In this document: positions 12,139 through 50,931 of the stretch, in pieces
Position numbering within the stretch: the stretch's first letter is position 1
How the letters are laid out: every line of letters begins with the position of its first letter
From: an uncultured virus (IMG/VR IMGVR_UViG_3300025121_000020)
Taxonomy: Duplodnaviria > Heunggongvirae > Uroviricota > Caudoviricetes
Reading direction: 5' to 3' (one strand)
Length of the DNA: 64,000 nt
IMG/VR virus record: IMGVR_UViG_3300025121_000020
Made by a program: the position numbers and the translations under genes
Notes under the pieces: model-generated
Database searches by the model: none
Seen by the model: the letters and a program-made list of their open reading frames with translations, nothing else
Told to the model about the DNA's origin: nothing

Positions 12139-12177
12139 ACTATCCTTTTTACCCTTGCCAAAATGTCAGCGGGGAGT

Positions 12178-13281: not shown

Positions 13282-13554
13282 TTACGGCATCCCCTCTACC
13301 CTTGCCAACATGTTGGCAGGAAGCTTGTTTCGAATCGGTCCGGCAGAACGCTGCCCACCGCACACGCTGCAAACGTCCCCATATCCGGAGCCCCTCCCTG
13401 AAAATCCCGAACCACCGCAAAGATCACAATCCGGAGTGAATTCCAGGAGGTCACGGATAATGCTGCGATAGCTATGCCTGATAATGAATACCACGGCGAC
13501 CAGCAGGCACACTATCGAGCATAAGAAGACAATCCAGTCGGATGCGTAGCTCAC
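13282..13554 (-). CDS. Membrane-anchored CxxC-CxxC Zn-finger protein
   Basis: GTGA-coupled start; hydrophobic segment, then RHSYRSIIRDLLEFTPDCDLCGG...VCSVCGG. Confidence 0.6.
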   Translation of the reverse strand: MSYASDWIVFLCSIVCLLVAVVFIIRHSYRSIIRDLLEFTPDCDLCGGSGFSGRGSGYGDVCSVCGGQRSAGPIRNKLPANMLARVEGMP

Positions 13555-16579: not shown

Positions 16580-19500
16580 TCAATTCGATCTCATGAACCG
16601 TTCTGTTGCCTCGGCAGACTCTTTTTTCTTCCGAGCGTCTTCGGCTGTCACATGAGCCTTCAACCGGTCGGCGATGGGGTGCGATGTAGACAGTAACTTG
16701 TCGCGAGCGTCCTTTGCTGCCGTTTTGGTGGCGATGTGCTGGGCTTTTCTGGCCTCAAACCCCGGAGTCCGGAACAGGTGCTCGTCTTCTGTCCCCGCAT
16801 ACCGCGAATCGAAGGTGGACGGGCTCTGGTGTTTCTCAGCCGCTTGATGCGCAGCGTGCGCTTCCTGCCACTCGGGAGGCATTGCCTTCTCGGATTCCAC
16901 CCTGCTGGCGTCCCAGAGCGCCTCATATTTTTTGGTCGGGAATCCGTAAAGCTTACCCTTGACTCCCTGGGGCTGCACCATCTGGTAATCCACGCCCCCG
17001 CTGTATCGGTGTTCGCCCGTGAGCGTAGCGTGCTGCCCGTTCACCGTGGCGGTTACTGAGCGTTGGAGCGTCCCCACGTTCTCATCCGGTACAAACGCGT
17101 GCCTGACGTGGAGCGCAACTTTGTCCCCCTGAGAACCTACGTGCTCTGCGGTCTGGTGGCCGAGGGCGTTGTAGTCTGTGAGGGGTTGTGTTGGCGCGGG
17201 CGGTATCGCTACCCCACCGGTTCGGGGCGTACCCTGCTGGACGGTGACGGGGTCTGTGGCTTTGGGAAGCAATCCCATATTTTCGGCTACCTGTGATGCC
17301 GGCAGAACGCCTGTATACTGAGACAGGGATTGCAGGCTTTGCTCCGTTTCTCCTTCTACCAAAGCCTGGGCATCCTTTTCTCGCTTCCACGCAACGATCT
17401 CTTTGCCCCGTTCTTCTGGCGTTTGATCCCGTCGCCGGTGACCTTCTTTCACCGCAGCGGCGATTCGTGGTAGGTCCATTTCAAGTGAGGCGATTTCGTC
17501 CGGGGTCAATCTCCCCAACTCTGTTCTGGGATCTTGTGCCCATCCAACGAGATTCACCCGGGGGGCCGCCCGCCACTCGCGAAGTTGACGTTTGCTGAAT
17601 GTATCTTCCGCGGGCTGGACTTTGGCTGGATGCGTGTCCGGATCTGTGGCGGAAAAAGTATCTTTTATCATCTTGTCCTCCTGTACAGGTTCACCTCCTG
17701 TCTTAACAGAAGAACCTTCCGGAGTCAAGGATTTTTTCTTAAAATCCTCATCACGTTTTTGTACTATCCCACGCATCCTCCCCAGTGGGGACGGGTCCTC
17801 CCCTCTCTCCAATCTCTTCCTCTCCTCCGCGCTGCGAACCGGCTTTCCCTCCCCGTCCACCCATCCATACTCGTCATCTCGCTTGTACGTCCTGTCCCCG
17901 AACTTCCGCTCCCTGACCATCTCCGGGTAGTCTGCCAACACCTCCGGCGACACATCTTTTCCCGCCGCCAGCGCCGCCCGCACGGCGTCGCGGTGCTGCT
18001 GCCCCGCCACCGGTGCCAGATGCGACGGTACGGCGCCGTCTAGGGCTGCCAGGCGACCGTGCTTATAGGTGATGTACGTCTGTCGCGGTACCGTTGCCGG
18101 ATCCGCCAGTCGCTCGCGGAGCATCTTTGCCCCTGCCAGGGCATGCTCGAGGTGACGCGGTGTGGCTCCCTCGAGCGAGCGCTTCGCCCATGGTCCGGCT
18201 TTGTCGAGTCGCGCCTCTGGTGAGGATTCCCGCAGGGTCTCTTTCTCTCGCGCGTGGTGCGACAGCTTGCGCATCGTCTCGAGCGCCTCGGGGATGCCTG
18301 TGTGCTTCTTGAAGGCGGGGTCATTCCAAGGACGGGAATAATCCCCACCGCGCTCCCCGGTGTGGTGCTCGGCGACCTCGCGCAGGATGCGCTCGTGGAG
18401 CGCGGTGTCCTGGACGGGGTGGTCCGCGTCCTGCTCTGCCGTGATGGGGAAGACCTTGCCTTCCGCTTTGTTGGTGCGCCAGCCGACGATCTTGTCGTTG
18501 GGGACGCGATGATCGCCCTTGAGCATATCCCGTGATACGTTCCGCAACTCATCCAGGAACTCCCCCCTCAAGAAGTCGTCCGCCAGCGTCTCGCGCAGTT
18601 TGTCCACCGGCATCGCGACTACCCCACCGAACAGCATCGGCCCGCTCGCGTCGTATTGCGCCAGGTAGCGCGCCCTGGCCTCCTCCGGACTCCAGCAGCC
18701 GAGGAATGTCTTGGGCTCGTCGAACGCGCCGTGCTCGTCTAGTTGTCGGACCGTGTAGGAATCCGGGGCGTCTGGTTCGTCGTGAACGACGTACGCGTCC
18801 CACTTGTCGCCCGTGTTGTCGACCGCCCCCAACCCGTGCACTTCCCCGTAGTGAGCGTGCATGAGCGTCGACCAGGGCTTCCCGTCCGGGGCAATACCAG
18901 AGCGGTGGGACCCGCGGGGGTTCTCTACCGCGACAGGGATGCCCTGGTAGCGAATTATGCCCGTGAAAGGGTGATCGCGGCGGTTGAAGCCCGTGTAGGG
19001 GAGGACGGGTACCTCACGTGTGCCCTTGCGCATGGGCATCGAGTACGCTCGGAATAGATCGGCTTGCTCCTTCTCTGTGCCGCCGACTTCTCGAGCGACG
19101 TGCTTCCCTCGCAGACGGGACGCATCGCCGCCATACTTCAGTGCCAGTGCCCGCATCTTTGCCAACCTTCCCTTCCCTCTGACATCCGCAGCATCCTCGA
19201 GGATGCTGTCCTTGTACTCATCCACGGCGTTCAAGACGACCTTCGTCGCGGCCTCCCTGTTCAGTCCCAGCTCATGAGACGCCTCTCGTATGGTGTTGTC
19301 CTGGTGGTTCAAAACGTAGTCATCATAAGGAATACCGTCGATCTCTCCAGATTGGTCCGGTGCCGTCTCTAAGTCGTGCCACTGAGCCACGGCGTCCCGG
19401 AGGGAGGGTGACCAGCGGCCAAGGGCATCGCATGCCTCGTCGGGATTGAAGCCCTTATAGGTACCATCGGTTGTACCGTGCAACGGTAGGTCAACTTTCG

Positions 19501-20989
19501 GTAAGTCAGAACGCTGAATGAGTCGTCCCGGACCTTTTTTGCGATGCTCGAATGAATCTAGGTCCAGCTCATTCAATGCTTTGAGAATCGCATTCCCAGC
19601 AGCAACGTTTTGTCGTGGGGTCATCTGCTCGACAATTTCTGCAATTGTTCTTGCACTTGCTCCGTTTTGGTCCAGTGCCTTCATCGCTACAAACGTCGTG
19701 GTGTCTGGTGCCACGTGAATCGCTCCCTTGTGCATAGCAGAGCTATGCTCTCCTAGCACGCTCTTCCAGTCCCGCATCGGCTCGAACCCCGCCACGCTCA
19801 CGTGCTTCGGGTGCACGCGGACCTCCCCCTGCTCGCTCTTGTTGCCACTTCTCGTAGCCAGCGCCGCCTCATCCAGGTAAGGGTGGTTGTACACTCCAGA
19901 TACCCTACTTGGGTGCGCGTACTTCAAGCTGTCGTGGTGCAGCCCTTTACCTACTCCCGCGACTACCTCCCCCCGTTCTGGGTCAACCAGCGCGTCTACG
20001 TTTGCATGCGCCCGGACCACTCCGATCTCGTCCGGGTCGATGGGCTTCGCCAACCCGCTGATGATCCAGGGTACGCGAAAGCGGTTCTCCGCCTCCGGTT
20101 GCACGCCGTGCGACGACGCCACCGCGTTGATCCGCTCCCTGACCTGCCTGGCGTACTCTTCGGGGTGATTGGCATCGAATCGACGGACATTCTCCCGCTG
20201 ATAGTTCGTCGCCTTCGGCATCCAGTGCTTGTCGAACCAGGCTACCACCTTCGGGTCCGCGTGCGCTTCGTTCAACGCAGCCAGCGCCGCTGCGATAATC
20301 TTCGCCCCTTCTGGACTCTCAGTAAACGAGACGGTATCCTCCGGACCCCCTCCCAGCACCTCACTCCTAGACTGCTCGCGGGACTTGAGCCCGGTGCGCA
20401 GGATGCTGGACCCTGCCGCCGTCGCGTGATACAGCGGTCCCGGCAGCGCCCCGCCCGCGGCCCAGCGCTCCGCGTGTTCCGACCGCGCCGCCACGGCACC
20501 GGGATGGGTGGCCTCCGCCCGTTGGCGAGAGTCCTGGACGTGCTGCGTCTTGTGCGCGACGTCGCGATCGCGCGCCACCTGGTCTGCCCGGTCCTTCTCT
20601 TCATATGCAGCGCGCCCGAGGTCGCCGTAGGAATCAAAGACGTCTGACATGCTCGCGACGTCTTTGATTCCAGCTAATTTTTCCGCATTGTCCGAGAGCC
20701 AGGTTGAGACGCGCTTCCGGCCCTCCGCCTCCCCCAGGTGCTGGGAGACGCCGTCGTGCAGGGCGTCAACGGCATCCGCGTGGGTGGTCTTCCCCGCGCG
20801 GTACTCCGCGTGCGTCAGGGCGTGGTTCAGGTCGAAGGAGAGCGTAACCTCCTTCCGCGGGGAGGGGGAGCCCTGGTCGCGGATCCACGCGTCGTATGCA
20901 CCGCTGCCGGATAGGTGAGCGGCTTGCTCGGCTACGGTGGACCACTTGCCGTGGGCGTCGCGCTTCTCAGGGGTGACGTCAGGCTTCAC
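16580..20989 (-). CDS. 1469-aa polyvalent protein: ART-like domain + inorganic pyrophosphatase (InPase) + leader-like module
   Basis: Likely GTG at 20989 (GGAG SD, GTGA overlap). ART-like LYHAT...GL...VSFT...EQGEV. InPase VENPRGS.RSG..PDGK.W...YG...D..D.Y...FDE.K.FLG. Internal MLKG-RVP..IVGWRT module. Confidence 0.85.
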   Translation of the reverse strand: MKPDVTPEKRDAHGKWSTVAEQAAHLSGSGAYDAWIRDQGSPSPRKEVTLSFDLNHALTHAEYRAGKTTHADAVDALHDGVSQHLGEAEGRKRVSTWLSDNAEKLAGIKDVASMSDVFDSYGDLGRAAYEEKDRADQVARDRDVAHKTQHVQDSRQRAEATHPGAVAARSEHAERWAAGGALPGPLYHATAAGSSILRTGLKSREQSRSEVLGGGPEDTVSFTESPEGAKIIAAALAALNEAHADPKVVAWFDKHWMPKATNYQRENVRRFDANHPEEYARQVRERINAVASSHGVQPEAENRFRVPWIISGLAKPIDPDEIGVVRAHANVDALVDPERGEVVAGVGKGLHHDSLKYAHPSRVSGVYNHPYLDEAALATRSGNKSEQGEVRVHPKHVSVAGFEPMRDWKSVLGEHSSAMHKGAIHVAPDTTTFVAMKALDQNGASARTIAEIVEQMTPRQNVAAGNAILKALNELDLDSFEHRKKGPGRLIQRSDLPKVDLPLHGTTDGTYKGFNPDEACDALGRWSPSLRDAVAQWHDLETAPDQSGEIDGIPYDDYVLNHQDNTIREASHELGLNREAATKVVLNAVDEYKDSILEDAADVRGKGRLAKMRALALKYGGDASRLRGKHVAREVGGTEKEQADLFRAYSMPMRKGTREVPVLPYTGFNRRDHPFTGIIRYQGIPVAVENPRGSHRSGIAPDGKPWSTLMHAHYGEVHGLGAVDNTGDKWDAYVVHDEPDAPDSYTVRQLDEHGAFDEPKTFLGCWSPEEARARYLAQYDASGPMLFGGVVAMPVDKLRETLADDFLRGEFLDELRNVSRDMLKGDHRVPNDKIVGWRTNKAEGKVFPITAEQDADHPVQDTALHERILREVAEHHTGERGGDYSRPWNDPAFKKHTGIPEALETMRKLSHHAREKETLRESSPEARLDKAGPWAKRSLEGATPRHLEHALAGAKMLRERLADPATVPRQTYITYKHGRLAALDGAVPSHLAPVAGQQHRDAVRAALAAGKDVSPEVLADYPEMVRERKFGDRTYKRDDEYGWVDGEGKPVRSAEERKRLERGEDPSPLGRMRGIVQKRDEDFKKKSLTPEGSSVKTGGEPVQEDKMIKDTFSATDPDTHPAKVQPAEDTFSKRQLREWRAAPRVNLVGWAQDPRTELGRLTPDEIASLEMDLPRIAAAVKEGHRRRDQTPEERGKEIVAWKREKDAQALVEGETEQSLQSLSQYTGVLPASQVAENMGLLPKATDPVTVQQGTPRTGGVAIPPAPTQPLTDYNALGHQTAEHVGSQGDKVALHVRHAFVPDENVGTLQRSVTATVNGQHATLTGEHRYSGGVDYQMVQPQGVKGKLYGFPTKKYEALWDASRVESEKAMPPEWQEAHAAHQAAEKHQSPSTFDSRYAGTEDEHLFRTPGFEARKAQHIATKTAAKDARDKLLSTSHPIADRLKAHVTAEDARKKKESAEATERFMRSN

Positions 20990-21528
20990 GGGTGTACTCC
21001 CTGCATGGCATCGGCACACTTGATGCACTCTGGGGTGTTGTCGTCACGGTCAAACCCCTTCTCCGCCGCCCTGTCCGCGACGATGCCTCGCATTCGCAGC
21101 ATCGCTCGCGTCAGCTTCGGCTCTCCGTTCTCTCCTCCGAACAATATCTCTCGCATCACTTCGTCAAACTCCGGATACGCGTTCCGAGCGTACTCAATCA
21201 GCATCACGAAGTGCTCGATCTCTTCCTTCTTGTTGTGGGCCAGGATCTCGGCAAGATCCGTGTCCTTCGTCCGAACTATTCGGAGCGCGTACTGGTTGAC
21301 CGCGTCTAGCTCCTCCCGCATGCTCTCGAGCACGCGGGATATGTCCTTCACGTGCTCTGGGACGTCTTCAGACCAGGCGTCGGCGGCGCCTTTGAGCATC
21401 TCGTGGGCGGCAGTTAGTGCACACTCCCCCATCGATCGCTCGAGAACTTCACGGTGCTTCGGTGTGCCGGAACAGGTGGAGCCCCCTTTCAGCATCTCTT
21501 CTATGGTAGATCTCTTGAGCACTATCAT
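20986..21528 (-). CDS. Encapsulated-ferritin (EncFtn/Flp)-like protein with MIVLKRSTIEEMLKG leader
   Basis: EELDAVNQY...LAHNKKEEIEH matches the EncFtn pattern (EExxAxxxY...HNxxEExEH). The leader differs by one residue from that of 30119..32569. Confidence 0.82.
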   Translation of the reverse strand: MIVLKRSTIEEMLKGGSTCSGTPKHREVLERSMGECALTAAHEMLKGAADAWSEDVPEHVKDISRVLESMREELDAVNQYALRIVRTKDTDLAEILAHNKKEEIEHFVMLIEYARNAYPEFDEVMREILFGGENGEPKLTRAMLRMRGIVADRAAEKGFDRDDNTPECIKCADAMQGVHP

Positions 21529-21607
21529 CTCGTGATCCCCTTCGGTAGGTAGACTTTCTCTCCAGAATACCGCGCTCATCTGAATATCGCAATGTATTCC
21601 AGCACTG

Positions 21608-21637
21608 TTGACACCGTCAACCCTCTTCTGCTATCCT
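21608..21637 (+). promoter_or_regulatory. Sigma70-like promoter (divergent from EncFtn-like gene)
   Basis: TTGACA-N18-TATCCT with TGn extension. Confidence 0.6.
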
Positions 21638-23721: not shown

Positions 23722-23790
23722 CACCTAAGCGATGACTGAGGAACAGTTCGCCGATTGCGAGTCCTGTCTGCAAAACTTCTTGAAGGTTTT

Positions 23791-29936: not shown

Positions 29937-30122
29937 ACGGATCCACCGCATCTTCCCAAACCTCTCGCGTGCCTTTAACTCTCGCAAATGCGTCAACAGA
30001 TCTTCAGCAGAAGGCCTCTCTTGCTTCTTCATCTCAAACTCGTATTCCGGATCTCCCGGGTGCACATCCTTCCAACCCTCAAAAATGATCCCGTCTTTTT
30101 CAAACGAAAATTTTGCCTTCAT
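29916..30122 (-). CDS. Small protein (68 aa) translationally coupled to the metallopeptidase-bearing gene
   Basis: ATG (MKAKFSFEK) overlaps the TGA of 30119..32569 as ATGA. Confidence 0.6.
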   Translation of the reverse strand: MKAKFSFEKDGIIFEGWKDVHPGDPEYEFEMKKQERPSAEDLLTHLRELKARERFGKMRWIRSRRLKQ

Positions 30123-32569
30123 AGCCGACCCCGTAACTTCTGCGCATACTTTTTCAACTCTGGATCCCGCGCCCCCGTACCAAGCCACCCCAAATATTTC
30201 TTTGAGGCTTCGACCCACGCATCATCCCTTACCCGACCCATGTTTACCTCAACCGAAGCCGCGTTACCCCATTCTGCGTGAGAATATTTGATCTCCTCCT
30301 CGACGTTTTCCTCAAAAACAGAGTCCGGGCGCGCTTTTTCCTCCTCTACAATTCCCTCCCAGATCTCAATCCTCCGTGCATCCCCCTCCTCCCGTACCTT
30401 GTCTAGGGATTCCTGTACACTCCGCATCGATCGATCGCGCATCTCTCGCAAAATTCTATCGCGAGCATCTGCGTGGTACTCTTCTGGTGTCATCTCGCTC
30501 GGACGCAATCCTTCCGGTTCCGGTCCGCCGTACTTGTGCAAATGTTCCTGCAGGAGCCGAACAAAGCGACTGTCGTACTCGCGTATCGTCGCCTCTCTTC
30601 CCTGTATCAGGAGATCTGCGAAACCCTGCGCGAGTAGTTCCTTCCGCCCGACCGCGTCCCCCTTTCCCGTCCTCTCGTAATAGGGTGACAACTTCTTTGC
30701 GTCGACCAGCCTGTCATGCGCCGCTATCAGCTCAGGGTGGTCGTCTAACCTCTGCAGGTCTCCTATCGCGTGGCCAATTTCGTGCGCCATCGTGACTTCG
30801 TACCCACTCTGCAACGCATTTGCCACGATCTCCCCATGACCGTAGCACCCTCCTACCTGATCCCACGACTCCCGCGTATCCCATGCCTCAGTAAGATGCT
30901 TCGCACCTTTGTAGTGCTGCATGTGATCCATATCCGTGAAGAGTTTATTCCCGATGTAGATCCCATTCAGCTCGCTATCGCGTAGGGCATGCAGTAGTTT
31001 AGGAGGGAACAGAGCTACCCCGGCTAAGTACCCCCTCATCGCCGGGCTATTCGGGTCATCCGCCTGTACACGGACCACTTTTTCCATTGCTGCTGCGTGC
31101 TCCGGATGCTCCTCTTTGAAGTAGTCCGGAACACCGGGAGGAATTTTCTCCTCATACTCCCTTCTCTTCCGCATCGCAACAACTATAGCCTGCTTTTCAG
31201 TCTTAGCCTCAGTCGCAGGAACCTCGGTGACCAGCGTTCCCCTCCCCGTCACGAACGAAACGACGTGCTTCTCATCCCCCATCTCGACCTTCGCCGAACG
31301 ACGCACGTCTTGCGCGGATCGATCCAAGAGATTCTTACTCGTCACCTCTTTAAGTTCATCAAAAACAGGAGAATCTCCGTACTTGCGGTAGACGTCATCA
31401 TCGCGATACAACTTGGCAGCGCTCATAACATCGAACTTTTCTCCGCGCTCGATGGCTTCGCTAACACTTTGAAACCAGGTAGGAGGGGACGGGTGCGCGG
31501 CCACATATTCCGCAAGTTCCGCTTTCTTTTCGCGGAGTTCTTTCTCCTGTTCCTCCATATACCCCAAGGGGTACTGCATGCGATACTTCGCCCAGTCCCC
31601 GTCCTCTATGTCTACTTTTCCGCGGACTACCCTGCGCGCTAAGTCCAAAATCTCGCTCTCACTCATCCTGCCTGCCGCGATGTCCTTACTCCACTTCGTA
31701 GGACGTTTCCCCTTCATGTAGGGAACGTCTTCGACCTTTCCTTCCACCCACCTGTCCCCCTCCACGCGCCCAGGAGTATACACGGGCCGTGTCTTGTCGG
31801 GGTGCTCTTCTGTTCCGTTTCGAATCGCCGCCGCCTTCCGCATCGTTTCGAGGATCAGTTGTCGGTCTCGGTGTACGTTACCTTCTGGGCTTTCCTGCCA
31901 CTTTTGTGCACTATCTATCGCGCTCGCGTCTTCCCGCTTCTTTCGCTCTTCGGGAAGGTTACTCACAAAATTTTCATGCTCCCACTTGTACACCTCCCAC
32001 GGCCTGGACATATCCGGACCCCCGCGTAACCTCCACTTCCCGCCGTCGACCTCTTCGAACTCCGGATCTGTGCGCAAGCTATACCCCGCGTTCTCCGGTT
32101 TGTCCAGAGCACGCGCACGATACGGTCTCTTTCCCTGCGTCCCGATCGCCTCTTCTTCCGTGATGGGTCTCCCGTAGTGCTGACGAGCGGCACGCCTGAC
32201 CTCGTTCATCACGTCTACTGTTTCAGGGGAGAGGTCCGCAGTTTTTGCGCGCTCTGCCCTCCTCTCCGCGATCGGGTCCTTCGAACTATCGGCTACCTTA
32301 GCCACGATTTCTCGGTGCTTCCGGAGGGCTTCCCCCGTCATCGATAACTTCTTGCCCTTGAGATCCTTGCTCCCCTCCCAGGAGGGATGCACCTCGTAAG
32401 AAATCTTCTTGTCCGTCACCTGAGTGTACCTAATCGGTACCCTGGCCCTGTGTTCGGCATCCGGCGCCGACGCGGCAGAGGGCATGGTGACCCAACCATC
32501 GATCTCAGAATCCGGAATGCGCGCCCCCTTGAGCATTTCTTCTACGGTAGATCTCTTGAGCACTATCAT
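30119..32569 (-). CDS. Type-A leader protein with HExxH zinc metallopeptidase
   Basis: MIVLKRSTVEEMLKG-ARIPDSEIDGWVTMPS leader; GGCYG...AHEIGH...KELLAQGF. Confidence 0.85.
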   Translation of the reverse strand: MIVLKRSTVEEMLKGARIPDSEIDGWVTMPSAASAPDAEHRARVPIRYTQVTDKKISYEVHPSWEGSKDLKGKKLSMTGEALRKHREIVAKVADSSKDPIAERRAERAKTADLSPETVDVMNEVRRAARQHYGRPITEEEAIGTQGKRPYRARALDKPENAGYSLRTDPEFEEVDGGKWRLRGGPDMSRPWEVYKWEHENFVSNLPEERKKREDASAIDSAQKWQESPEGNVHRDRQLILETMRKAAAIRNGTEEHPDKTRPVYTPGRVEGDRWVEGKVEDVPYMKGKRPTKWSKDIAAGRMSESEILDLARRVVRGKVDIEDGDWAKYRMQYPLGYMEEQEKELREKKAELAEYVAAHPSPPTWFQSVSEAIERGEKFDVMSAAKLYRDDDVYRKYGDSPVFDELKEVTSKNLLDRSAQDVRRSAKVEMGDEKHVVSFVTGRGTLVTEVPATEAKTEKQAIVVAMRKRREYEEKIPPGVPDYFKEEHPEHAAAMEKVVRVQADDPNSPAMRGYLAGVALFPPKLLHALRDSELNGIYIGNKLFTDMDHMQHYKGAKHLTEAWDTRESWDQVGGCYGHGEIVANALQSGYEVTMAHEIGHAIGDLQRLDDHPELIAAHDRLVDAKKLSPYYERTGKGDAVGRKELLAQGFADLLIQGREATIREYDSRFVRLLQEHLHKYGGPEPEGLRPSEMTPEEYHADARDRILREMRDRSMRSVQESLDKVREEGDARRIEIWEGIVEEEKARPDSVFEENVEEEIKYSHAEWGNAASVEVNMGRVRDDAWVEASKKYLGWLGTGARDPELKKYAQKLRGRL

Positions 32570-33693
32570 CCCGCGATCCTCTTCACTATTGCGTGGTACC
32601 TCTTGAACACATCGAGCATGCTCCCGCCGTTTCTCTTCACCAGGTACAGATTCGCGTCTCTCGCGTCCGCTGCCTCCTTCATCAGGACATCCCGCATTTC
32701 CAGATCCTGGAGTATACCATCAGACGCGTCTTCCAGCAGCTCCCACTGTGCGTCGACCTGATCCTGCGTCGTCCCGACCCAGGGAGACAACACGTCATCA
32801 GGATTATGCCCGTTATCTTTGACGAGCATCCTCACGTGAGAGATATCATCCTCCACTTGCCACTTCCCCGCCAGTCCCTCTTTCAATTTACCAACTTTCC
32901 CCAGATCGTACTGATGCGGAACACCGTCCTTGAGCCCCACCTGTATCTGGTCGTTCACGGCGTACCCAGCCGCATGCATCGCCTCCACGCCGGCGAGAAC
33001 GGCATGCAACTGGTCGGCGGACAACTTCGTCTTCGTGTCCAGGTGAGGCTGGATCTGAAACGCCTTGTCCCCGTGCACCCTCGTCTCGATTGGCAAGACC
33101 CCGGGTATCCCGATCCGGTGCATCTCGTTGTGCACGCGAGACTGTTCGAGCATGCGCTGCTGCGCGTCTCCCGGGCTGCGATGGTAGTCGTTCATTGGCT
33201 GGTAGGGGACGGTGGTGCTGACCTTGACCACGTGGTCGCCCACGCGGAAGGCGAGCCCGTCGTCGCCGCGCCCGAGGTACTCCCCCTCCCCGCGCAAAAC
33301 GGCGTTGACGCGAGGGTCTGCGCTATTCGGCGTCCCCGTCACACGACCGGAAAGATCGTCCACGAAGTGACGCATGGACTCGCGGGGCATGGACACGCCA
33401 CCTTCGGCGCGATCGGCGTAGTTGACTCGGATCCGATCCGGAGTGACCTCCGTGACGCGCATCGGGACGGGGGAGTGGTCCCGAGGGCTAGGGATAGAAA
33501 AGACCGTGTCGACTGTCCAACGGCCGTCGGAGTCGCGGGGCTCGGAGGAGTCGAAGCCCTTCTCGAGCGCGTGTGATCGCTCTCTGAGCCCCCTCACGGC
33601 CAACTGCGCCGTAGTCGGCATAACGGGGTCCTCCCCCTCCTGCGTCCCGTCCAGGATCGTCCCGTCCTCTAGCGTGATGCTGAATCGCCTCAT
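32566..33693 (-). CDS. Protein-kinase-like protein with KGF..PRD..GRW motif
   Basis: YLGRGDDGLAF Gly-loop, VVKV lysine, H..G...ND, YDLG (DFG-like); catalytic loop divergent. Confidence 0.65.
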   Translation of the reverse strand: MRRFSITLEDGTILDGTQEGEDPVMPTTAQLAVRGLRERSHALEKGFDSSEPRDSDGRWTVDTVFSIPSPRDHSPVPMRVTEVTPDRIRVNYADRAEGGVSMPRESMRHFVDDLSGRVTGTPNSADPRVNAVLRGEGEYLGRGDDGLAFRVGDHVVKVSTTVPYQPMNDYHRSPGDAQQRMLEQSRVHNEMHRIGIPGVLPIETRVHGDKAFQIQPHLDTKTKLSADQLHAVLAGVEAMHAAGYAVNDQIQVGLKDGVPHQYDLGKVGKLKEGLAGKWQVEDDISHVRMLVKDNGHNPDDVLSPWVGTTQDQVDAQWELLEDASDGILQDLEMRDVLMKEAADARDANLYLVKRNGGSMLDVFKRYHAIVKRIAG

Positions 33694-36600
33694 AGCCTAT
33701 GCCTCTTCCCGAACGCATCGGCGCGCTCGCTCAACTCAGGGTCTATCCCTAGCTCCCGGGTATACTTGATCCAGTCTCCCACGATCTTGCGGCTGTCTTC
33801 GCTGTCCAGCGCACTGGTCGGGTCCGTCTCCATGTCCGCGAGAGTGGCCCAGCTCTGGTGCATCTCCTTCAGGTAAGATTCCGCCTCATACTCGAAGCTC
33901 TCGGACTTCTTGGCACTACTCAGACTCTGCAGCGTGGTATTCACGTCTACGCGGAACGGGTGGAGATCCGCGTCCGACGCGCCGTCCTTCTCCCACCTGG
34001 CGAGTGATTTCTTTGCCTCCGCGAGGGACTTCGTAAGTGCGCGCACCTTCCTCTCGCGCAGCATTCGTGCCACGGTGCTTTTCCGCTCCGGAGTCGCGTA
34101 CTCCGCATAGTCGATGTCAGCGGGGGTGAGCGCAGGAACCGCCGGCCCACCGTGCTTCGCCAAGAACTCTCGCAGGAAGTGTACGAACTGCCTGTCGTAC
34201 ACGGAGGCTGCCTTCTTCGGCCCCCAGAGGAGCACGTCCTTGAACCCCTCCGCTAAGAGTTCCTTCCTACCGTCCCAGTCCCCTCCCCCGGTACGATGCA
34301 GATAGGGAACCAACTTCCCCTTCTTTGCCAGGCGGGTGTGCGCGTCAAGCAGCTCTTTCCGCCCGTTCAACCCCAGGAAGTGACCCACCGCGTGACCAAG
34401 CTCGTGGAGGATTGTATCCGACGTCGACTTACCGTCCCCGGCGTCGAACAGGTTATTCGCCACCGCTACATTCTGCGCAGGGGCGAACACCCCGTGGATG
34501 TCGTCGTAGGACGTCCGGGTGTCCCAGGGCTTCGGGACGAGCACTTCCCCGCGCAAGCGACTGAGGTGATCCAGGTCTGGCGTGAGCAGAGAACCTACGT
34601 GCACGCCGTTGAGCCCGTAGTCTCGAAGCGTCTTCAATAGCGGAGCCGGCACCTTCGCGAGTGCGTCCACCCCCTTCCGGATGGACTCCCCCTTGCTCTC
34701 CGCACCCTCTACCCGCAGCAGATCTCTCAGCGATTCAGCGTGCTCCGGATGCTCCTTTTCGAACCACTCCGGCACCGCAGCGGGCTTCTCGCTCTCTCGA
34801 GCTGCCATCTGTCGGCGCGCGACGTCGATAGCCTGATCTGGGGTAGCAACATCGGCATGCGGTACGACCTCCGTCCACGTCGAGTATGGGTTCCGGAACT
34901 CCACCCGGTAAGGCGCGTTAGCCTCCGTCGACGCCAGGACACTAACGGCGTCCTTACTCATCTCCAGCGGGTGCTTGGCGTGCTTCTCCAGGAACGCAGC
35001 CCACGACGGGCTGTCTTCGCTCCCTTTGAAGAAGTGCGGGTGCAGCCTCTTTCCCACTTCGGCGGAGAGGGGCTCCCCCCTCTTTATCGCCGCGTCAACC
35101 ATGTCGTCCCAGGACCCCGTCACCTCTGGGTGCTTCACAGCATGCCAGGCGTACTTCTTTCCCGCGTCGCGTAACGCTTCTGCTGAGCTATCCAGCTTGA
35201 GGAGCGCGTACTTCACATCCTGCTCGTATCCGCTGCGATCCAGCCACCCGGACGCCAGGTACATCCGGGCATCCGTCGCGACCTGACCCTGCGCAGCCTC
35301 GAGCCTTTCTGTAAGCTTCTGGCGCTTGCTCTCATCCTTCAGATCGGAGAACTGCTTCGACAACCTATTGTACGAAGCCAAGTGCTTCTCCACGTCAACA
35401 GACGGGTGCCTGTATTTAGCGTATAGGTATGCCAGGTCAAATTTGTAGTATATAGCTTCCCGTGCCTCTTCGTGGGCGTACCTAGCTGTGGACAGGGCGG
35501 ATCGAAGGTCCTCCCGCTCCTCTTCGTATGGGTCGTTGCGCTTGGCCGCGTGCCACTGGCTCTCTTTCAGCTCCCAGGGACGATCGCGCAGAGTCGGATC
35601 GCCCTTCACGCGCCAGTACCCTGGGGCGTCTGGATCCTGCTCGAAGCGATCGTCGTGCTCAACCCCAGACACATCCTGTGGTCTCGCCCTCCCTCCCTTC
35701 TTCCTGACAGCTACGATCAGAGCATTGTCCGGCACTCCTTCCAGAGCCTTCACGTGCCTGTCCGCATCCTCCTTCGCCACCTTGCTCTTAGTATTTTCCG
35801 CCACCTTCGCCGCGATCTCCCGGTGCTTCCGCAAACTCTCCCCTTCGAGCACAATCGAGTCCTTGTGGATGTCTCCGGACTCTGGGTGGAAACCGGGGTG
35901 AACCTCAGCTACCACCTTGTCCGCACTGACCGACTTGTACCGAATCGGCACCCGCGCACGGTGCTCCGCGTCCGGAGACGTCCCCTTCGACGGCATGGTG
36001 ATCCATCCGTCGATCTCTGAGTCTGGGACGCGCCCCTTGAGCATCTCCGCGTTGTACCGCACCACGAACTCTCGCTGTCCTGCGCGGTTACTCGCCCACA
36101 CGATGTCGGCGATCGGTACGTCTCGGCTCAGTATCGGCCACTGGTACTCTTTCCGAAGCCCGCTCTGCCCCCAGTGTTCAGCGAAGCGTCGACTCGACGT
36201 CCAGGACAGCGCAAAGGGCGTCTTTTCGTTCCCCTTGAGCGGCCTTTGCGCGCGGTACAGGTGTACGGTATCACCAAACTTCGCGCGTAACGCATCCCGC
36301 ACGGGTGTGAACGTTTTCTCGAGCTCGCGCTGCACATCTTCCGGCGGGTCGTACGTCAGCCCCACGTCGGGGCACATCAAACCGTACTCGGCGCCGGAGC
36401 CGTCCGCTTCGCACCCGAAGTGATTCTCGAGCCTCTGGGCCGCACCGAATGACAGGCTGCGATCAGCTTCCGCGACGATCCGCCCCACTTCCGAATCATT
36501 GAACGGATCCGCAGATGGGTCCCGCGCCCACTTACCTTTGCGGTCCCGGGTCTGCGCGGGGTCAAACCCCTTCTCCGCGTCCAGCTCGATCTCCTCCGGC

Positions 36601-37456: not shown

Positions 37457-39487
37457 TTACTCCTCGAGCTCAAAATAATGATGACGCGCATCGTACGCTG
37501 CGGTATACCCGCGCCGTTGCATCTCTTGTTTCAACTCCTCAGAGTGCCCACCTTGCGCAAATTGCGATACTGCACGCGGCGTAAAAATGAGCGTCTTTCC
37601 TTCCTCTTTCCACGTACCCCCTCCCCCTTTACTCTCCCCTGCAAATGTCTTCATAACACTTCGAGGAACAGCCTTAATTTTTGTCACAGTATCTTTGTCT
37701 TTCAATGGGTCTACAATGACCTGAAACGGGGCCACCTGCCCCGGTCGTTTCCGCATATTCATATACTGCTCAAACCTGGCTCGAGCTTTCTCAATAGGAT
37801 CTGTCCCCTCGTTCATACCTGGAAACTTCTCTTCATTCTCTCCTTCGCAGACCTTCCACCCATACCCACCTAGTTGCCGTGCCCAGTATACCTTGAGTTT
37901 GTACTCTTTTTTCAAATCTGGATCCAGAAACTTTCCCACAGTCCGCTCTTTGTGCCCATCCAGGTGCTCTCTGATCGTACCGGTCCTCCCCTTGCTCAAC
38001 GCTTCTCTCACCCTATCCGCCGTCGCTTTACCCCCCGGCCCCACCCTCTTCTCAAACTTCTCGGCTGCCTCGAGAATACCGGGTGCATTCCTGATCTGTT
38101 CTTCCGGTACCTGTTCCCCACGCGCCAACGCCTTCACCACTTCGTACGGATACTTGTCGCGGTCCGCGTCCGTCGGCCTGTCCATGAGCCAGATCGGGTA
38201 TCCGTTCTTCCCGGATATCGGGTACGTGTAGGATCCGTCTATCCCCTCCCCCTCTGTCGCGCGGTGCAACTCTTCCGTAAGGCTATCTTTTCTCTTCGCC
38301 AGGTTCCCGGCTTGCGCCTCCCTGGTCGTCGCTCGAGCTCGGGTCAAGTGCGTGTACTCTCCCCCCAAGCGCTGCCCGGACATATTCGCTCGATCGAGTT
38401 TTTGGTTGACGGCGTCTATCTCCTTCTTGATCGTCTCTACGCTCCGCGGCGGCGCCTTACTCGCCTCGAGGTACATGCCCCGCTTCCAGCCCTCCTTACC
38501 CAGACGATCCGCCTCTGCGACCGCCTCATCCCACCTGGTATTCTCTTCCGGAGTATTGCCGCGACCGTGCGCGAAGAGATTCTTGTTCTCATGATGACGC
38601 GCTAATAACTCCACGTCAGACAGGTCCTCCACGCGCGTCTGGCGCGTCTTATGCTTCACCAGGGCTTCGTGGATCTCCCTGTCCCCCACCTCTGGCAAGG
38701 CTGCATATTTGCTCTTCTTGCGCCAGAACGCGTCTCCCGCCACAGTCGTCTTCTCCCACTCCCCCACCTTGGTTCCATCTGGTAGCTCCGCGAGCGAGAG
38801 TATCAACTTGTTTCTCCGCGCCTGAGACGCGTCCCCTACGCGGGCTAGTGTCGTCGCGATAGATTCAGACTTTGCCGGGTCAGGATTCTCCGCGTGCGTC
38901 CCAACCCCCGCAGGCTGGTACTCCACCTTACCCCAATCCACCCGCACCGCCGTCATCTTGTCGGTGACGTCTTTGCCGAGCGCCCCCAGGGGCAACCCGT
39001 GCTCTCGAGCGAACCCCTCCCGCTGCCAGTAGGGAGTTTGCCGAGCAGCGGCATCGATGCTTGCGTGAGACGCGTGTACCTGACCGGGGGGCTCGAGCTT
39101 CTCTGCTCGACTATCCGCAATCTTCTTCGCGATACCTTTGCTCCCTTCCGCGATCTTCTTCGCCAACTCCCGATGCTTCTCAAGATTGGGACCTTCGAGT
39201 GTGAAGGTTTTCTTCTTCAGATCTGCAAGATTCTCCGCATCCGCTTTCTTCTCTGCCGAAGAGAGTACCCGCGGCTTACCCCCCTCGTAGGTTACGTGCC
39301 TTGCTGGGTCCCAATCCGGATGCACGCGATACTCGAGACGATCGGCGCCCACCTTCACGTGCTTGATTGGCACGCGGGAGCGATGCTCCGCATCTGGAGA
39401 GGACGCACTCGACGGCAGTGTGACCCAACCGTCAATACTCGCGTCTGGGATGAGACCCTTGAATGCTGCGCTAGATAACAGAATCAC
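37457..39487 (-). CDS. Type-A leader protein, payload unrecognised
   Basis: AFKG-LIPDASIDGWVTLPS leader; first ~190 aa closely match 39484..42993. Confidence 0.85.
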   Translation of the reverse strand: MILLSSAAFKGLIPDASIDGWVTLPSSASSPDAEHRSRVPIKHVKVGADRLEYRVHPDWDPARHVTYEGGKPRVLSSAEKKADAENLADLKKKTFTLEGPNLEKHRELAKKIAEGSKGIAKKIADSRAEKLEPPGQVHASHASIDAAARQTPYWQREGFAREHGLPLGALGKDVTDKMTAVRVDWGKVEYQPAGVGTHAENPDPAKSESIATTLARVGDASQARRNKLILSLAELPDGTKVGEWEKTTVAGDAFWRKKSKYAALPEVGDREIHEALVKHKTRQTRVEDLSDVELLARHHENKNLFAHGRGNTPEENTRWDEAVAEADRLGKEGWKRGMYLEASKAPPRSVETIKKEIDAVNQKLDRANMSGQRLGGEYTHLTRARATTREAQAGNLAKRKDSLTEELHRATEGEGIDGSYTYPISGKNGYPIWLMDRPTDADRDKYPYEVVKALARGEQVPEEQIRNAPGILEAAEKFEKRVGPGGKATADRVREALSKGRTGTIREHLDGHKERTVGKFLDPDLKKEYKLKVYWARQLGGYGWKVCEGENEEKFPGMNEGTDPIEKARARFEQYMNMRKRPGQVAPFQVIVDPLKDKDTVTKIKAVPRSVMKTFAGESKGGGGTWKEEGKTLIFTPRAVSQFAQGGHSEELKQEMQRRGYTAAYDARHHYFELEE

Positions 39488-42400: not shown

Positions 42401-42993
42401 TTCGGCTCTACCTTCGGCTCCACCGCTTCCTTCCCTCCCACCTTCCCCCAATCCACCCACACCGCCGTCATCTTATCCGTCGCCACCTTCCCCATCGCCT
42501 CCACGGGCAGTCCGTGCTTCTTGGCAAACTCCGCCCGCTTCCAGTAGGGGGTCTCTCTCGCCTCCTTGTCCACGCTTGCGTGGTCATCCCCCGGCTCGAG
42601 CTTCTTTACCCTCGCCTCCGCTATCTCCTTCGCCACCTTTCCCGTGCTCCCCTCTGCGATCTTCCGTGCCAGCTCCCGGTGCTTCTCCAGATCCGCGCCC
42701 TCGAGCGTGAACGTTTTCTTCTTCAGGTCGGCCAGGCTCTCTGCGTCCGCCCTCTTCTCCGCCGCAGATAAGACGCGCGGCTTGCCGTCTTCGTAAGCCA
42801 CGTGACGAGCGGGATCCCAGTCCGGATGAACGCGGTACTCTAACTTGCCCGCACCGACACTCACATGCTTGATCGGGACTCTGGACCGGTGTTCTGCGTT
42901 CGGCGCCGATCCACCCGACGGCAGAGTAATCCAACCGTCGATATTTGAGTCCGGAATGTAGCCTTTGAGTGCTTCGAGGGATAGGACTAGCAT
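39484..42993 (-). CDS. Type-A leader protein with LPD5-like motif, HExxH and LPD1-like domain
   Basis: DVGEKIGGARKD; FRGIEYGNWV, AFGARG.G.A.AHYEP..INLT...G.GSLAHEWAH; YW..PHEMFARAFE...YP.G.ER. Confidence 0.88.
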   Translation of the reverse strand: MLVLSLEALKGYIPDSNIDGWITLPSGGSAPNAEHRSRVPIKHVSVGAGKLEYRVHPDWDPARHVAYEDGKPRVLSAAEKRADAESLADLKKKTFTLEGADLEKHRELARKIAEGSTGKVAKEIAEARVKKLEPGDDHASVDKEARETPYWKRAEFAKKHGLPVEAMGKVATDKMTAVWVDWGKVGGKEAVEPKVEPKVEPKVEPKVEPKVEPKVEPKVEPKVEPKVEPKVEPKVEPKVEPKVEPKVEPDTSTWSSADHYAEADRREDAGDADGWREHRALALEKAKVEEAARAKQERPKPDRLAKLKKDHGYSDGMSVEFADHGDGEGRSEGVVTGADADGVDVMSHRTGEKVRVPWDKFNRGQVGVKAGPWREDPDVEAEHKKLIDAHKKVVPVISEQLEKDRVEYAALEKKGVTKRGYPANTPEKMTADKLKKQIKEAQEFLDSSDDTLAKLEGAEGLAKARHLVEAKRISVENAAKEPELPNTPSFKSMAEAEAWVEEQRAGRIAPKDVDTDERSGRRLYQDVGEKIGGARKDKWADVHAGNLDEIERAGSGVAFSTVTKEKVLGKHDPQRDKDFGDTPAASWLKRQVFASVGSKPNIPSLKSGSDRELVKAWKDAFPGVTMTADSPQARALYVSGIDKLKKGLDTCRTVKDVHDFLQEWDEEHGGKWQSETEITHSMAADLEKRFPASWGSGARFIHVNGKEYHVGYHSLEPAGLRLGSRNGKDVLRQDVADPLERNRPRLESAVLGKRFFEGVVERGYGTAFGKEVSRAGYYERSPDKEKNEAYWQKTYPEWEGGEREKKERGERESPFVLTRREGIPERVGGPKIPEAVSVAASEVGDAVAGDMLFDYFGFRGIEYGNWVNDADAAAHVKHAYGALADLADLVGIEPSQIAHGKKLAIAFGARGSGRASAHYEPDRAVINLTHTRGGGSLAHEWAHFMDHVMSGGTFAVEGMWRRMAAASHGETAAQVHPDVQRAFADVMRVIKTPSAELREELQNRTNQAYSEVEHAQKLDAMAPRGTEEHAARRKEWQEASDRYKEARKQQTKHRGSSKFATHAELLGDYWVRPHEMFARAFESWAEDKLEAAKRKNTYLVVDTQRLYNVTRKTRDGGTAHGLEPYPQGAERKVINGAIDRLVESLARTKELQKGVWKRVFNVVSVGGGE
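42251..42424. repeat. 12-nt in-frame tandem repeat x~14.5 encoding VEPK
   Basis: TCTACCTTCGGC units, with occasional TCCACC variant. Confidence 0.97.
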
Positions 42994-50500: not shown

Positions 50501-50931
50501 TGGGAGCTGCGTCCCGCGATCTTCCTCACAATCTCCTCATGCTTCTCCGGATCCGCATAGGTGATCTTCGAATCCTTCGTGAGGGGGATCACGTGCTTGT
50601 TTCCCTCCTCCCCCACCGTAATCCACCCTTTGATCTCACTCTCCGGGACGCGCTTCTCCCCTTTGAGCATCTCTGCTACCGTATCCGCGCGCAAGACCAC
50701 GTGAACGCCATCCGGGAGGCCCTTCTCTACCGGCACCACCTCCATGTGGCGAGAGGAGGGGTCGATCCAGTTCGGGACTGTCAGTCCCCCTGCGTGGAGA
50801 GCTGTCGCCACTGCCTGGCACACCTCCCGATACTCCGCGACCGACAGATTGGGACGGTTGAGCGGCGACTGGTACTGCGCCGCCATGTCCACGGCCTCAC
50901 TGGTGGTCATCTGCATAGTATCTCCGATCAA
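47566..50931 (-). CDS. 1121-aa protein with hybrid A/B leader
   Basis: EMLKG-EKRVPESEIKGWITVGEEGNKHVIPL...KHEEIVRKIA. Confidence 0.85.
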   Translation of the reverse strand: MIGDTMQMTTSEAVDMAAQYQSPLNRPNLSVAEYREVCQAVATALHAGGLTVPNWIDPSSRHMEVVPVEKGLPDGVHVVLRADTVAEMLKGEKRVPESEIKGWITVGEEGNKHVIPLTKDSKITYADPEKHEEIVRKIAGRSSHEPSEDEYTKQELEKHHVSEGTRVQGYIDTATQELEKLRAKRGKRAETQEERSIAARIEEAKAHLPGGEKYETALPAREKRIRATHQAMLADRKRAKDIQDRKDFLKRAGELPAPGAPDFKSGMRNLGEYERAGSAFHDRFGSARDREPSASMAGAEIDSKLLPPTAMPEELLEQHAGSPEAMERLRLHAKDRWERAMYSKQDLVDGKKYDPLTGEAKKFIHQKDRAEHAALQRAENYWKEVELRASHAVSAPDMLKQIRQDYAEGPLQGDAKSMSREDLDRAHGNALANAENNFNSRIGRLQDYASATTDPKRRGDLADRAEKLSAARDAEMERLHNEHPAVQEINRRRDERKQQRTESGDAWQQAAHAHDYTNEYGARVPSLGKDSDDIFGEWQRLSESDPFPSQRRVVGQIVDGGGRYAWQNGEIVRLHPAQGKNLASYAPATRAEKTEIDRAIRSGTFEVKALPHEGITGNKPYNRFDPNHANHPGHGYYDEFHRATGNPLEGTSEKTKLDREMGERRSKRQDEAVAKALGEFTAVDANEAESEAQAMLEDAYEGDPAVDFDSPEHFVSAVKAAWGVKDTARARDDAEHATAKDFGKEAGKYHRGMMEAGLVGPDEFGETDVEMSKLTPSELREREGEFEKQQVKRHVEFKTKHLGEEDYPQYHSLIGSESVPEERQIGLFGGGGRPARKVDLAMRGRNHRLGGKEYAVHRRTQGERGGEWEVHPEPGAPLEVNDDGDEVAGEKQHWYPSKEDAVQAFARKHAGNAAVKVTHPNAVGAFEEARPKEELPEIRAAKWQQVVRDWTPEGKEAYKAELQQHKERYERKKQEAADRERGREKDREAEAERNREMQRAFAAENEKLRSAPDMVGADGVPLHTMSADEYAKKAQSEASHVVMNHKEGRRNTLRVDGATPLGTYGYKAPKRYRVPVDKVEEARNQGASVAREQQEVHTHPKRAEARREHATAMRQQKLKGG

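Follow-up and report, generated by a model that had tools for sequence, protein, structure and literature searches.

The internal proteins of phage T4 carry an N-terminal capsid targeting sequence that is removed by the prohead protease. The Dar/DdrB proteins of phage P1 are also processed and packaged, according to a passage in Iyer et al. (2017; PMC5512222), and elsewhere in that source InPase-type polyvalent proteins are considered to be packaged in the virion and injected, with zincin-like peptidases cutting polyvalent proteins into units. Ferritin, encapsulin, rubrerythrin and iron are not mentioned in the main text of the same paper (PMC5512222). The encapsulated ferritins (EncFtn) are divided, in part of a 2024 review (PMC11202242), into four classes, those with a targeting peptide (FLP-TP), those fused to the shell (fusion-FLP), the shell-less (s-FLP) and the IMEF, none of which is presented there as viral or polyvalent. 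Here we describe an open reading frame (ORF) at 20986..21528 on the minus strand of the 64-kb stretch IMGVR_UViG_3300025121_000020 (hereafter the window, meaning the whole stretch of DNA that was analysed) which encodes an EncFtn-type half-ferritin amid an array of giant polyvalent-type proteins. A first-pass annotation, made from the letters alone, had proposed that an encapsulin cargo was re-addressed here to a phage head by a 15-residue leader. Our own conclusion, in which we have a little better than even confidence, is that the protein is an EncFtn-type ferroxidase module belonging to a polyvalent arsenal that is injected or packaged, the arsenal most likely being that of a large groundwater phage; its packaging, its processing and its ferroxidase activity are what we infer.

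The ORF is open for 180 residues from the ATG at 21528 (a longer reading of 197 residues from the ATG at 21579 is likewise open). Pfam PF22277 (EncFtn-like) matches residues 53-130 over profile positions 6-83 of 85 (E 9.2e-24; 83.5 bits against a cutoff of 27), and a phmmer search of PDB sequences returned 3k6c (E 5.5e-15), 5n5f (E 1.4e-11), 7oe2 and 5da5 with its mutants, at 36-40% identity to the FLP-TP types, the remaining three matches being weak (E >= 0.28). An AlphaFold model built on 61 aligned sequences consists in this domain of two long antiparallel helices and a short third one (residues 58-86, 90-117 and 119-129), with a pLDDT of 92-98 in the core block (about residues 61-120), and in Foldseek it agrees in fold with the EncFtn crystal chains at 1.1-1.4 Å over 77 columns (target TM about 0.8). 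Only five columns of the 61-sequence alignment are invariant, namely E72, E73, Y80, E103 and H106 in the numbering of the window protein; they belong to the motifs EELDAVNQY and EEIEH, and align with E32/E62/H65 of the R. rubrum protein, the residues replaced in its mutant structures (E32A, E62A and H65A, as given in the structure titles). The ferroxidase residues of the window protein are E73, E103, H106 and Y80. The proposal of an EncFtn domain that retains ferroxidase-type residues is therefore borne out by the Pfam and PDB matches and by the five invariant positions, and the ORF encodes what is, by its sequence, an intact EncFtn-type half-ferritin with a complete ferroxidase site, the activity of which is predicted. 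The parts of the gene are as follows.

21139..21372, minus strand: EncFtn-like half-ferritin domain, residues 53-130 (Pfam, PDB sequence search, alignment and model)
20989..21138, minus strand: C-terminal tail, residues 131-180, with a predicted helix at 141-156, the half-linker EKGFD (21049-21063) and a Cys-containing end
21009..21052, minus strand: cassette site, where 44 nucleotides (nt) are replaced in other strains by a module of about 0.8 kb (NPEEARDASGKW...KVVDKT), giving the 434-aa allele
21388..21402, minus strand: second EMLKG boundary motif, residues 43-47, from which similarity to the 987-aa allele resumes
21403..21483, minus strand: module remnant, residues 16-42 (GSTCSG-TPKHREVLERS-MGECALTAAH), the WxT...VFPI core being absent
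21484..21528, minus strand: leader, residues 1-15, MIVLKRSTIEEMLKG, the opening element of a polyvalent N-terminal module
21483..21543, minus strand: copy 1 of a 61-nt repeat, with the Shine-Dalgarno-like GAAGGGGA, the start codon and the leader codons, 89% identical to copy 2

Is this protein, then, an encapsulin cargo? Its tail (...EKGFDRDDNTPECIKCADAMQGVHP), when read directly, holds no GSL-type targeting peptide, and under a strict pattern of our own for the GSL-type motif 24 of 154 relatives have such a tail, the window protein not among them; on this point the first-pass annotation was right. Nor was an encapsulin gene seen in the 64 kb, as Linocin_M18 had no match in a Pfam scan of 45 window ORFs, and an encapsulin part searched against the window by tblastn gave a best E-value of 0.85. 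The protein scores 75.5 bits against a cutoff of 125 for NCBIfam TIGR04535 (encapsulin-associated ferritin-like protein), which makes it a divergent EncFtn, and 40.1 bits against a cutoff of 90 for EncB_fam. Because it lies below these cutoffs, has no targeting peptide and has no shell gene beside it in the window, we do not file it as encapsulin cargo.

A HMMER search of 1.84 billion representative sequences gave 298 matches at E <= 0.001, and among the best 150 that are listed most are EncFtn proteins of 67-270 residues and four are longer than 300. No near-length homolog of the 180-aa protein was found, and a search for longer homologs yielded only P0001 (987 aa), with which a metagenome scan led in turn only to L001, a contig of classical EncFtn plus encapsulin. 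In a tree of 146 EncFtn domains the window protein stands with P0001 and P0154 on a long isolated branch, its nearest neighbors being P0002, P0006 and P0011, which have short tails without a targeting motif; that much the phylogeny supports, but it has too few columns for an origin to be named, and it gives P0119, an 865-aa protein, no settled position. A fold search of BFVD gave no match at E <= 0.001, the best being weak (A0A140F3M3, E 0.024). That protein, from Pyrobaculum filamentous virus 1, is 87 residues long, bears the label "rubrerythrin diiron-binding domain" and has an EncFtn-like fold (target TM 0.80), so that an archaeal filamentous virus would appear to encode such a half-ferritin too. 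A separate observation is that P0005 (205 aa) combines an EncFtn domain with a C-terminal domain of PHROG 7595 (unknown function), a further link between EncFtn and a phage family.

The settings in which the EncFtn domain occurs are what place it among polyvalent proteins. P0001 opens with the same 17 upstream residues and leader, continues through an intact module start and DUF3560, and ends in the same EncFtn domain and tail; it matches the window protein in BLASTP at 95% identity over 78% of the latter's length. P0154 (434 aa), which falls in the same 90% cluster as the window protein, has fourteen tail residues replaced by a module of about 268 residues that begins with the full linker NPEEARDASGKW. 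P0119, which is of an unrelated lineage, is a single chain in which a homolog of the window's 375-aa ORF is joined to EncFtn and InPase domains, and P0014 is an EncFtn-encapsulin (Linocin_M18) fusion, with which P0047 is grouped as shell-fused. Because of the 434- and 987-aa alleles and the 865-aa fusion with InPase, we regard EncFtn as one cassette in modular polyvalent proteins. This is where the idea of a re-addressed encapsulin cargo has to be recast: the EncFtn domain, the missing targeting peptide and the shared N-terminal element all stand, but the domain behaves as a cassette of modular proteins, in alleles and in a fusion, rather than as a cargo that a leader has redirected. The 180-aa form is short relative to the 434- and 987-aa forms of sister strains and, as the alignments indicate, arose by internal deletion. 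Even on this modest reading the locus documents natural cassette exchange in polyvalent proteins, with one gene in three structural alleles from metagenomes.

What, then, of the leader? The claim that it is near-identical in DNA to the leader of a metallopeptidase gene was correct as far as it went (21484-21528 versus 32525-32569, with 41/45 nt and 14/15 residues identical), the repeat in fact extending over 61 nt at 89% identity to span the 15 leader codons and 16 upstream bases. The four nucleotide differences within the leader comprise three synonymous changes and one of I to V, and the first 24 nt of the repeat are exact in both copies and found nowhere else in the window (0.00 expected by chance; 0/100 shuffles). 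As for the label "metallopeptidase", the 816-aa partner has one HExxH (residue 596), matches PHROG 4415 "peptidase" (E 3e-7) and has no Pfam family. More importantly, the leader is not a free-standing cargo signal, as had been proposed, but the first element of a module of about 130 residues which also occurs in the interior of proteins. The module reads hVLxxxxxE-MLKG, then xIPDxxIDGW(V/I)T..., and is found in seven places besides the EncFtn gene: at the very start of the 816-, 676- and 1169-aa ORFs (with looser versions of the leader at the latter two starts) and further in, near residues 20, 77, 460 and 824, in the 1224-, 1121-, 1254- and 1482-aa ORFs respectively. K14, G15 and G25 are invariant in nine aligned module sequences. 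Since the element lies inside proteins as well, it is not a simple N-terminal address. Its other copies are listed here.

32524..32584, minus strand: second copy of the 61-nt repeat, where the 816-aa gene begins, overlapping the end of the 375-aa ORF (ATGA)
35688..36077, minus strand: internal module copy in the 1254-aa ORF
39098..39487, minus strand: module at the start of the 676-aa ORF
42604..42993, minus strand: module at the start of the 1169-aa ORF, which also has LPD1
54126..54545, minus strand: module from residue 20 of the 1224-aa SNF2 helicase ORF
50314..50703, minus strand: divergent module copy at residue 77 of the 1121-aa ORF (HVVLRADTVAEMLKG...GWITVGEEGNKHVIP)
18170..18559, minus strand: divergent module copy at residue 824 of the InPase ORF

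Of this module the EncFtn gene retains only the opening 15 residues and the fragment TPKHREVLERS (compare TPKHREILERI of the 987-aa allele), the rest, which is kept in P0001, having been deleted. A second motif, EKGF(D/N)PxxxRDxxG(K/R)W, stands at other junctions of the 375-, 1254- and 1482-aa ORFs and in P0119 and P0154, and the end of the EncFtn protein carries its first half, EKGFD. Related signatures recur in P0119, where the EncFtn domain is bracketed by KLAKGIDL and KLEKGIDL, and an xLxKG motif lies no more than about 20 residues past the InPase domain both there and in the 1482-aa ORF. No Pfam family matched either the N-terminal module or the EKGF(D/N)P...RDxxGKW linker; a homolog search with the module led to no proteins but those of the window itself, nothing usable came from the ESM Atlas, and the AlphaFold model of the module has a mean pLDDT of 55. 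We read the MLKG element and EKGF(D/N)PxxxRDxxG(K/R)W as the family's putative module-boundary code and not as an encapsulin-type signal, with a protease site, a loading handle and a recombination joint all alike conceivable. The leader of the EncFtn gene is accordingly best described as a predicted shared module boundary, and as a capsid address it is unproven.

The array in which the gene is set is made up of giant, mostly minus-strand ORFs in series, many of them stop/start-coupled, in DNA of 60.3% G+C. The neighbors and junctions that bear on the EncFtn gene are these.

21591..21620, minus strand: candidate promoter of the sigma-70 type (TTGACG-18-TACATT, 9/12 consensus matches) ahead of the EncFtn gene, in the intergenic region from which that gene and the SSB gene diverge
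20986..20989, minus strand: GTGA overlap of the EncFtn stop and a possible GTG start of the next ORF
16580..20989, minus strand: giant InPase ORF downstream of the EncFtn gene, 1482 aa from the GTG at 21028 or 1469 aa from the GTG at 20989
30119..32569, minus strand: 816-aa protein with the leader, a full N-terminal module and a zincin-like region around its HExxH (residue 596)
32566..33693, minus strand: 375-aa ORF that carries the linker EKGFDSSEPRDSDGRW, belongs to no known family and shares 45% identity with residues 3-277 of P0119
33690..37454, minus strand: 1254-aa polyvalent ORF with the linker EKGFDPAQTRDRKGKW near residue 293, an internal boundary ...VVRYNAEMLKGRVPDSEIDGW near 460 and HELGH at 1017

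Three promoter-like sites were found in the EncFtn/SSB intergenic region against 0.3 expected, by consensus match only. The GTGA overlap suggests translational coupling of the EncFtn and InPase ORFs; a frameshift fusion of the two was considered and rejected, as nothing beyond the overlap supported it. In the InPase ORF, InPase (PF18823) occupies residues 690-815 and is followed at about residue 835 by the MLKG...GWxT module copy, and the PHROG matches of this region include families labeled minor head protein and virion structural protein. The 816-aa protein is a paralog of residues 470-1245 of the 1254-aa ORF, and the zincin-like peptidase signal of both is weak, with one HExxH each and a sub-threshold Pfam score (18.5 bits against a cutoff of 27.4). 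A 1717-aa plus-strand ORF resembles PHROG 10089 "DarB-like antirestriction" (E 3.8e-267; a methylase-helicase), and Pfam recognizes LPD1 and a SNF2 helicase elsewhere in the array. Several unrelated effector domains per chain are found in the neighboring ORFs; the window's EncFtn allele has one recognized domain. The Pfam scan of 45 ORFs was paired with a PHROG scan of 43, in which 13 ORFs had matches, both within the 64 kb.

Several further features of the array deserve mention in their own right. A 789-aa ORF (59121-61490, minus strand) combines Macro, DUF4326 and a YpsA-type SLOG domain, as a nucleotide/ADP-ribose-processing polyvalent protein would. A tmRNA gene (43179-43537, minus strand; Rfam RF00023, 128 bits, tag peptide ANNNAHYAEPARMAA) is complete and has paralogous giant ORFs on both sides, and the element therefore has its own tmRNA. 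Tandem repeats of 12 nt (GGCTCYRCCTTS) at 8-139, in a 771-aa ORF, and at 42212-42440, in the 1169-aa ORF, encode a four-residue repeat rich in Pro/Glu/Ala/Lys, and a 15-nt tandem repeat lies at 55886-56004 in a 685-aa ORF. A second family of giant ORFs (1-2313, 2382-7304 and 44089-47562, minus strand) has no Pfam or PDB match and opens with the motif (K/R)WV(T/S)(L/V)GEGE..KH(V/I)PI, which recurs at about residue 757 of the 1640-aa ORF; PDB sequence searches with the 1640-, 1157-, 1121- and 685-aa ORFs gave no match. Two pairs of direct repeats (76 nt at 89% and 59 nt at 76%), some 1.14 kb apart at 12142-12346 and 13289-13486, flank a short region by a PP2C phosphatase gene, and at 23164-24744 (plus strand), directly upstream of the DarB-like methylase-helicase, are an ORF matching PHROG 624 "DNA binding protein" (E 2e-23) and a radical SAM enzyme that could be assigned to no subfamily. 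An IS605-type TnpB/OrfB gene (9241-10485, minus strand; Pfam OrfB_IS605 and Cas12f1-like TNB) has a third-position G+C fraction (GC3) of 0.50, far under the 0.64-0.79 of its neighbors, and is for that reason probably a recent arrival. The GC3 of the EncFtn gene, at 0.73, is like that of its neighbors and unlike that of TnpB, and recent foreign acquisition of the EncFtn gene was rejected on that ground.

How might such a protein work? We envisage that the giant multi-enzyme polyvalent proteins would be delivered to the host along with the element's DNA, being loaded in the particle of a big tailed phage. The EncFtn gene is the first of an operon-like run behind the promoter-like site, stop/start-coupled to the InPase polyvalent protein of about 1,470 residues. 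The boundary motifs may serve as handles for loading, for cleavage by the zincin-like peptidases of the array, or for both, and the EncFtn protein, or its longer alleles after cleavage by a HExxH protein, would enter the particle or else be carried over with the DNA. Like EncFtn, the domain would form pairs across its ferroxidase interface, bind Fe(II) and oxidize it, and the oxidation could limit Fenton damage to the DNA of the element, either in the particle or on entry, in iron-rich, redox-fluctuating groundwater. A bolder version, which we hold to be rather unlikely, is that a large groundwater tailed phage packs an encapsulin-type ferroxidase in its DNA-filled head and that all its polyvalent cargo is addressed and trimmed by an x-E-MLKG / EKGF(D/N)PxxxRDxxGKW code. 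If that were true, virus capsids would carry the enzymatic cargo of their cellular look-alikes, and the encapsulin/EncFtn systems and the internal proteins of phages would form one continuum.

A central question is whether the element is a phage. We think it probably is, and since no capsid, portal or terminase gene is visible, we infer not only that identity but also virion packaging and processing. In favor of a phage are the view of Iyer et al. (2017) on InPase-type polyvalent proteins, into which this gene neighborhood falls, and the head and virion labels among the PHROG matches of the InPase region. Further evidence comes from the InPase relatives of P0119 (41-48% identity), which lie on eight IMG/VR contigs of 28-288 kb. 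Among the 33 ORFs scanned from their five distinct loci (the other three had identical ORF maps), a head-type gene lies 3-4 kb from the InPase ORF in two, L008 having a major head protein at a distance of 2.7 kb and L014 a head-maturation-protease-like gene at 4.2 kb; all that L009 has is an unnamed family that elsewhere accompanies the head-maturation-protease-like gene, and L011 and L013 have nothing of the kind. EncFtn-like genes were found on six IMG/VR contigs. In one, L005, a 350-aa EncFtn protein (PF22277, E 2.5e-28) with a coiled coil and a Gly-zipper is encoded between the large terminase and a head-maturation-protease-like gene, and L006 and L007 have the same ORF layout, layout being all that was compared. 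The genes that follow the large terminase in L005 (3917-10304) encode, in order, a 483-aa protein ending in a glycine-zipper 2TM, an alpha-amylase-like protein, a SNF2 helicase, the EncFtn protein and a 200-aa glycine-zipper protein, a run that looks like a set of ejected or internal proteins. The window's tmRNA also finds parallels, as tmRNAs are reported in huge phages in a passage of Al-Shayeb et al.

Several observations weigh against our reading. The 45 ORFs scanned with Pfam and the 43 scanned with PHROGs yielded nothing recognizable as a capsid, portal, terminase, prohead protease or tail gene. SSB together with antirestriction genes would also suit a plasmid leading region. Among 14 EncFtn-bearing proteins tested, there is none whose EncFtn part is covered by a PHROG family, and the BFVD search and the sub-cutoff TIGR04535 score reported above point the same way. 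Internal copies of the leader element, which four ORFs carry near residues 460, 824, 77 and 20, tell against a purely N-terminal address, and in the EncFtn gene itself the leader stands on a module whose core is deleted, so it may survive only for its ribosome site and start codon. The window's proteins are, moreover, absent from IMG/VR, from phage records and from 185,579 species genomes, which is why no relative with visible particle genes was found. Specifically, IMG/VR had no match for the 180-aa ORF, the 676-aa ORF or the alignment of the N-terminal module, the species genomes had none for the N-terminal module or the 375-aa/P0119 alignment, and phage records had none for the 816-aa protein, with which plasmid records gave one weak match, to Nonomuraea. 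The DarB-like ORF has one IMG/VR relative, L016 (48%), which has no other gene in common with the window. The stretch itself is present in 15 sequencing runs of six studies, all groundwater or soil metagenomes, with no RNA run listed among them.

The same absences can be counted in favor of a conjugative element, and the alternative that survives best, though we judge it unlikely, is that the element is a conjugative megaplasmid or an integrative and conjugative element whose protein travels with single-stranded DNA through type IV secretion and never meets a capsid. Virion genes were not seen in the 64 kb, the window is missing from IMG/VR, and the SSB, DarB-like methylase-helicase, SNF2 and MPTase domains are described, in a section of Iyer et al. 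(PMC5512222), as common to phages and conjugative elements; translation genes, moreover, are likewise carried by some large putative plasmids according to part of Al-Shayeb et al. However, no relaxase, type IV secretion system, primase or ArdC-N was matched among the window ORFs scanned with Pfam, the InPase relatives lie on IMG/VR contigs with head genes beside some of them, and some of the PHROG families matched by the InPase region are labeled minor head protein and virion structural protein. In the 64 kb no delivery genes of either kind were recognized to which the array might be linked, neither MuF, portal and virion genes nor type IV secretion and relaxase genes.

Could the protein instead be an auxiliary gene product of the shell-less type, acting in the cytoplasm against iron or peroxide stress, neither packaged nor injected, and with a leader that has no addressing role? 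We consider this quite unlikely, although there is something to be said for it: the best PDB sequence match is shell-less NE0167 (3k6c), the tree neighbors P0002, P0006 and P0011 are short-tailed and free of targeting motifs, shell-less EncFtn is a recognized class (in a part of PMC11202242), and two of the viral contigs, L003 and L004, have small, stand-alone EncFtn-like genes among replication genes. Against it, the domain is covalently part of a 987-aa protein with DUF3560 and of an 865-aa protein with InPase, the gene is stop/start-coupled to the InPase polyvalent ORF, and both boundary motifs of the polyvalent family have been kept.

The variation between strains bears on a third possibility, very improbable in our view, that deletions have left the 180-aa ORF as a decaying remnant of the 987-aa gene, without any role, the identity of the leaders reflecting recent recombination between two gene starts. 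Compared with P0001 the window gene does lack two internal stretches, of which module fragments remain, and it has the further indel of 44 nt/0.8 kb in the tail, and the 89% identity over 61 nt is far above that of other paralogous starts. Yet the ORF has kept an intact frame and invariant catalytic residues. Moreover, when contigs of four public runs were aligned to the EncFtn locus (none with the 987-aa form was seen), those of runs X12 and X14 departed from the window at 21008 and 21053, their loose ends encoding the P0154 junctions, and differed from it by 17 listed substitutions at 21088-21256 (two more are unlisted) in 16 codons, of which 12 changed purely synonymously, so that both forms appear to be under purifying selection. 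The exact 180-aa protein occurs on 11 contigs, the longest of 157,812 bp, and its 434-aa counterpart on six, in runs from six studies. The last alternative, that the EncFtn fold is only a ring-forming scaffold to oligomerize the attached polyvalent modules and its iron chemistry is irrelevant, is just as improbable, for while EncFtn decamers form even without a targeting peptide (part of PMC11202242) and fusions to unrelated modules exist in P0001, P0119 and L005-L007, the metal ligands are all invariant in the window protein and the aligned fused forms, and the window allele carries nothing attached that would need to be multimerized.

We therefore return to the reading of the protein as a module of a polyvalent arsenal, and to how it compares with the systems described to date. 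Relative to the internal proteins of the T4 and P1 type, the likeness is a short N-terminal peptide common to otherwise unrelated proteins of one element, and an acidic residue precedes the MLKG motif, which we take to be comparable to T4-type protease sites. Unlike those peptides, the window's element also occurs in the interior of proteins, so that the T4 capsid targeting sequence is a partial analogy only; further, no prohead protease or capsid gene is visible. The phage-type polyvalent proteins with InPase (Iyer et al., 2017) resemble the window's array in being giant ORFs of unrelated enzymatic domains accompanied by zincin-like peptidases, and the joining of EncFtn to InPase or DUF3560 in single chains (P0119 and P0001) is in keeping with them; the window differs in having no visible MuF, portal or type IV secretion anchor, and an N-terminal module and linker that lack a Pfam family.

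Among the ferritins, the FLP-TP of R. rubrum (Rru_A0973, 5da5) and H. ochraceum (5n5f) share the two-helix half-ferritin (1.1-1.2 Å over 77 columns) and the same E/E/H ligands plus the Tyr, whereas the window protein has no targeting peptide, no encapsulin gene in 64 kb and scores below the TIGR04535 and EncB_fam cutoffs, and has in addition a 52-residue N-terminal extension and a 50-residue tail made up of polyvalent boundary motifs. The fusion-FLP of Pyrococcus furiosus (5n5e), P0014 and P0047 also have EncFtn as a covalently attached module, but there the partner is the HK97-fold shell (Linocin_M18) and here it is polyvalent effector modules. In L005-L007 an EncFtn-like domain is again fused to other modules in a viral genome, beside a SNF2 helicase, but these proteins are only 36-38% identical to that of the window and have other partner modules, and the terminase/protease context of L005 is not visible in the window.

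In the literature searched, a description of EncFtn in polyvalent proteins did not turn up, nor did a paper treating a phage-encoded ferritin together with encapsulin; the co-assembly of cargo-related proteins in procapsids is raised solely as speculation in a section of a 2026 paper (PMC13669383). An EncFtn-like ferroxidase as a cassette of mobile-element polyvalent proteins would be a fifth EncFtn setting, beyond the four classes of the 2024 review. Should it prove to be loaded into particles, it would be the first enzyme to occur both as encapsulin cargo and inside a phage head, the known activities of injected phage proteins would be extended to iron and oxidative chemistry, and its two boundary motifs would offer a testable addressing or processing code for cargo engineering. 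Of all known forms, the s-FLP NE0167 of Nitrosomonas europaea (3k6c), the best PDB match, has most in common with it, having no targeting peptide and no obligatory shell. NE0167 is a 95-aa cellular protein, whereas the window protein belongs to a mobile-element polyvalent operon and has multi-domain alleles of 434 and 987 residues, and we conclude that it works most like the shell-less class, but set in a polyvalent-protein system.

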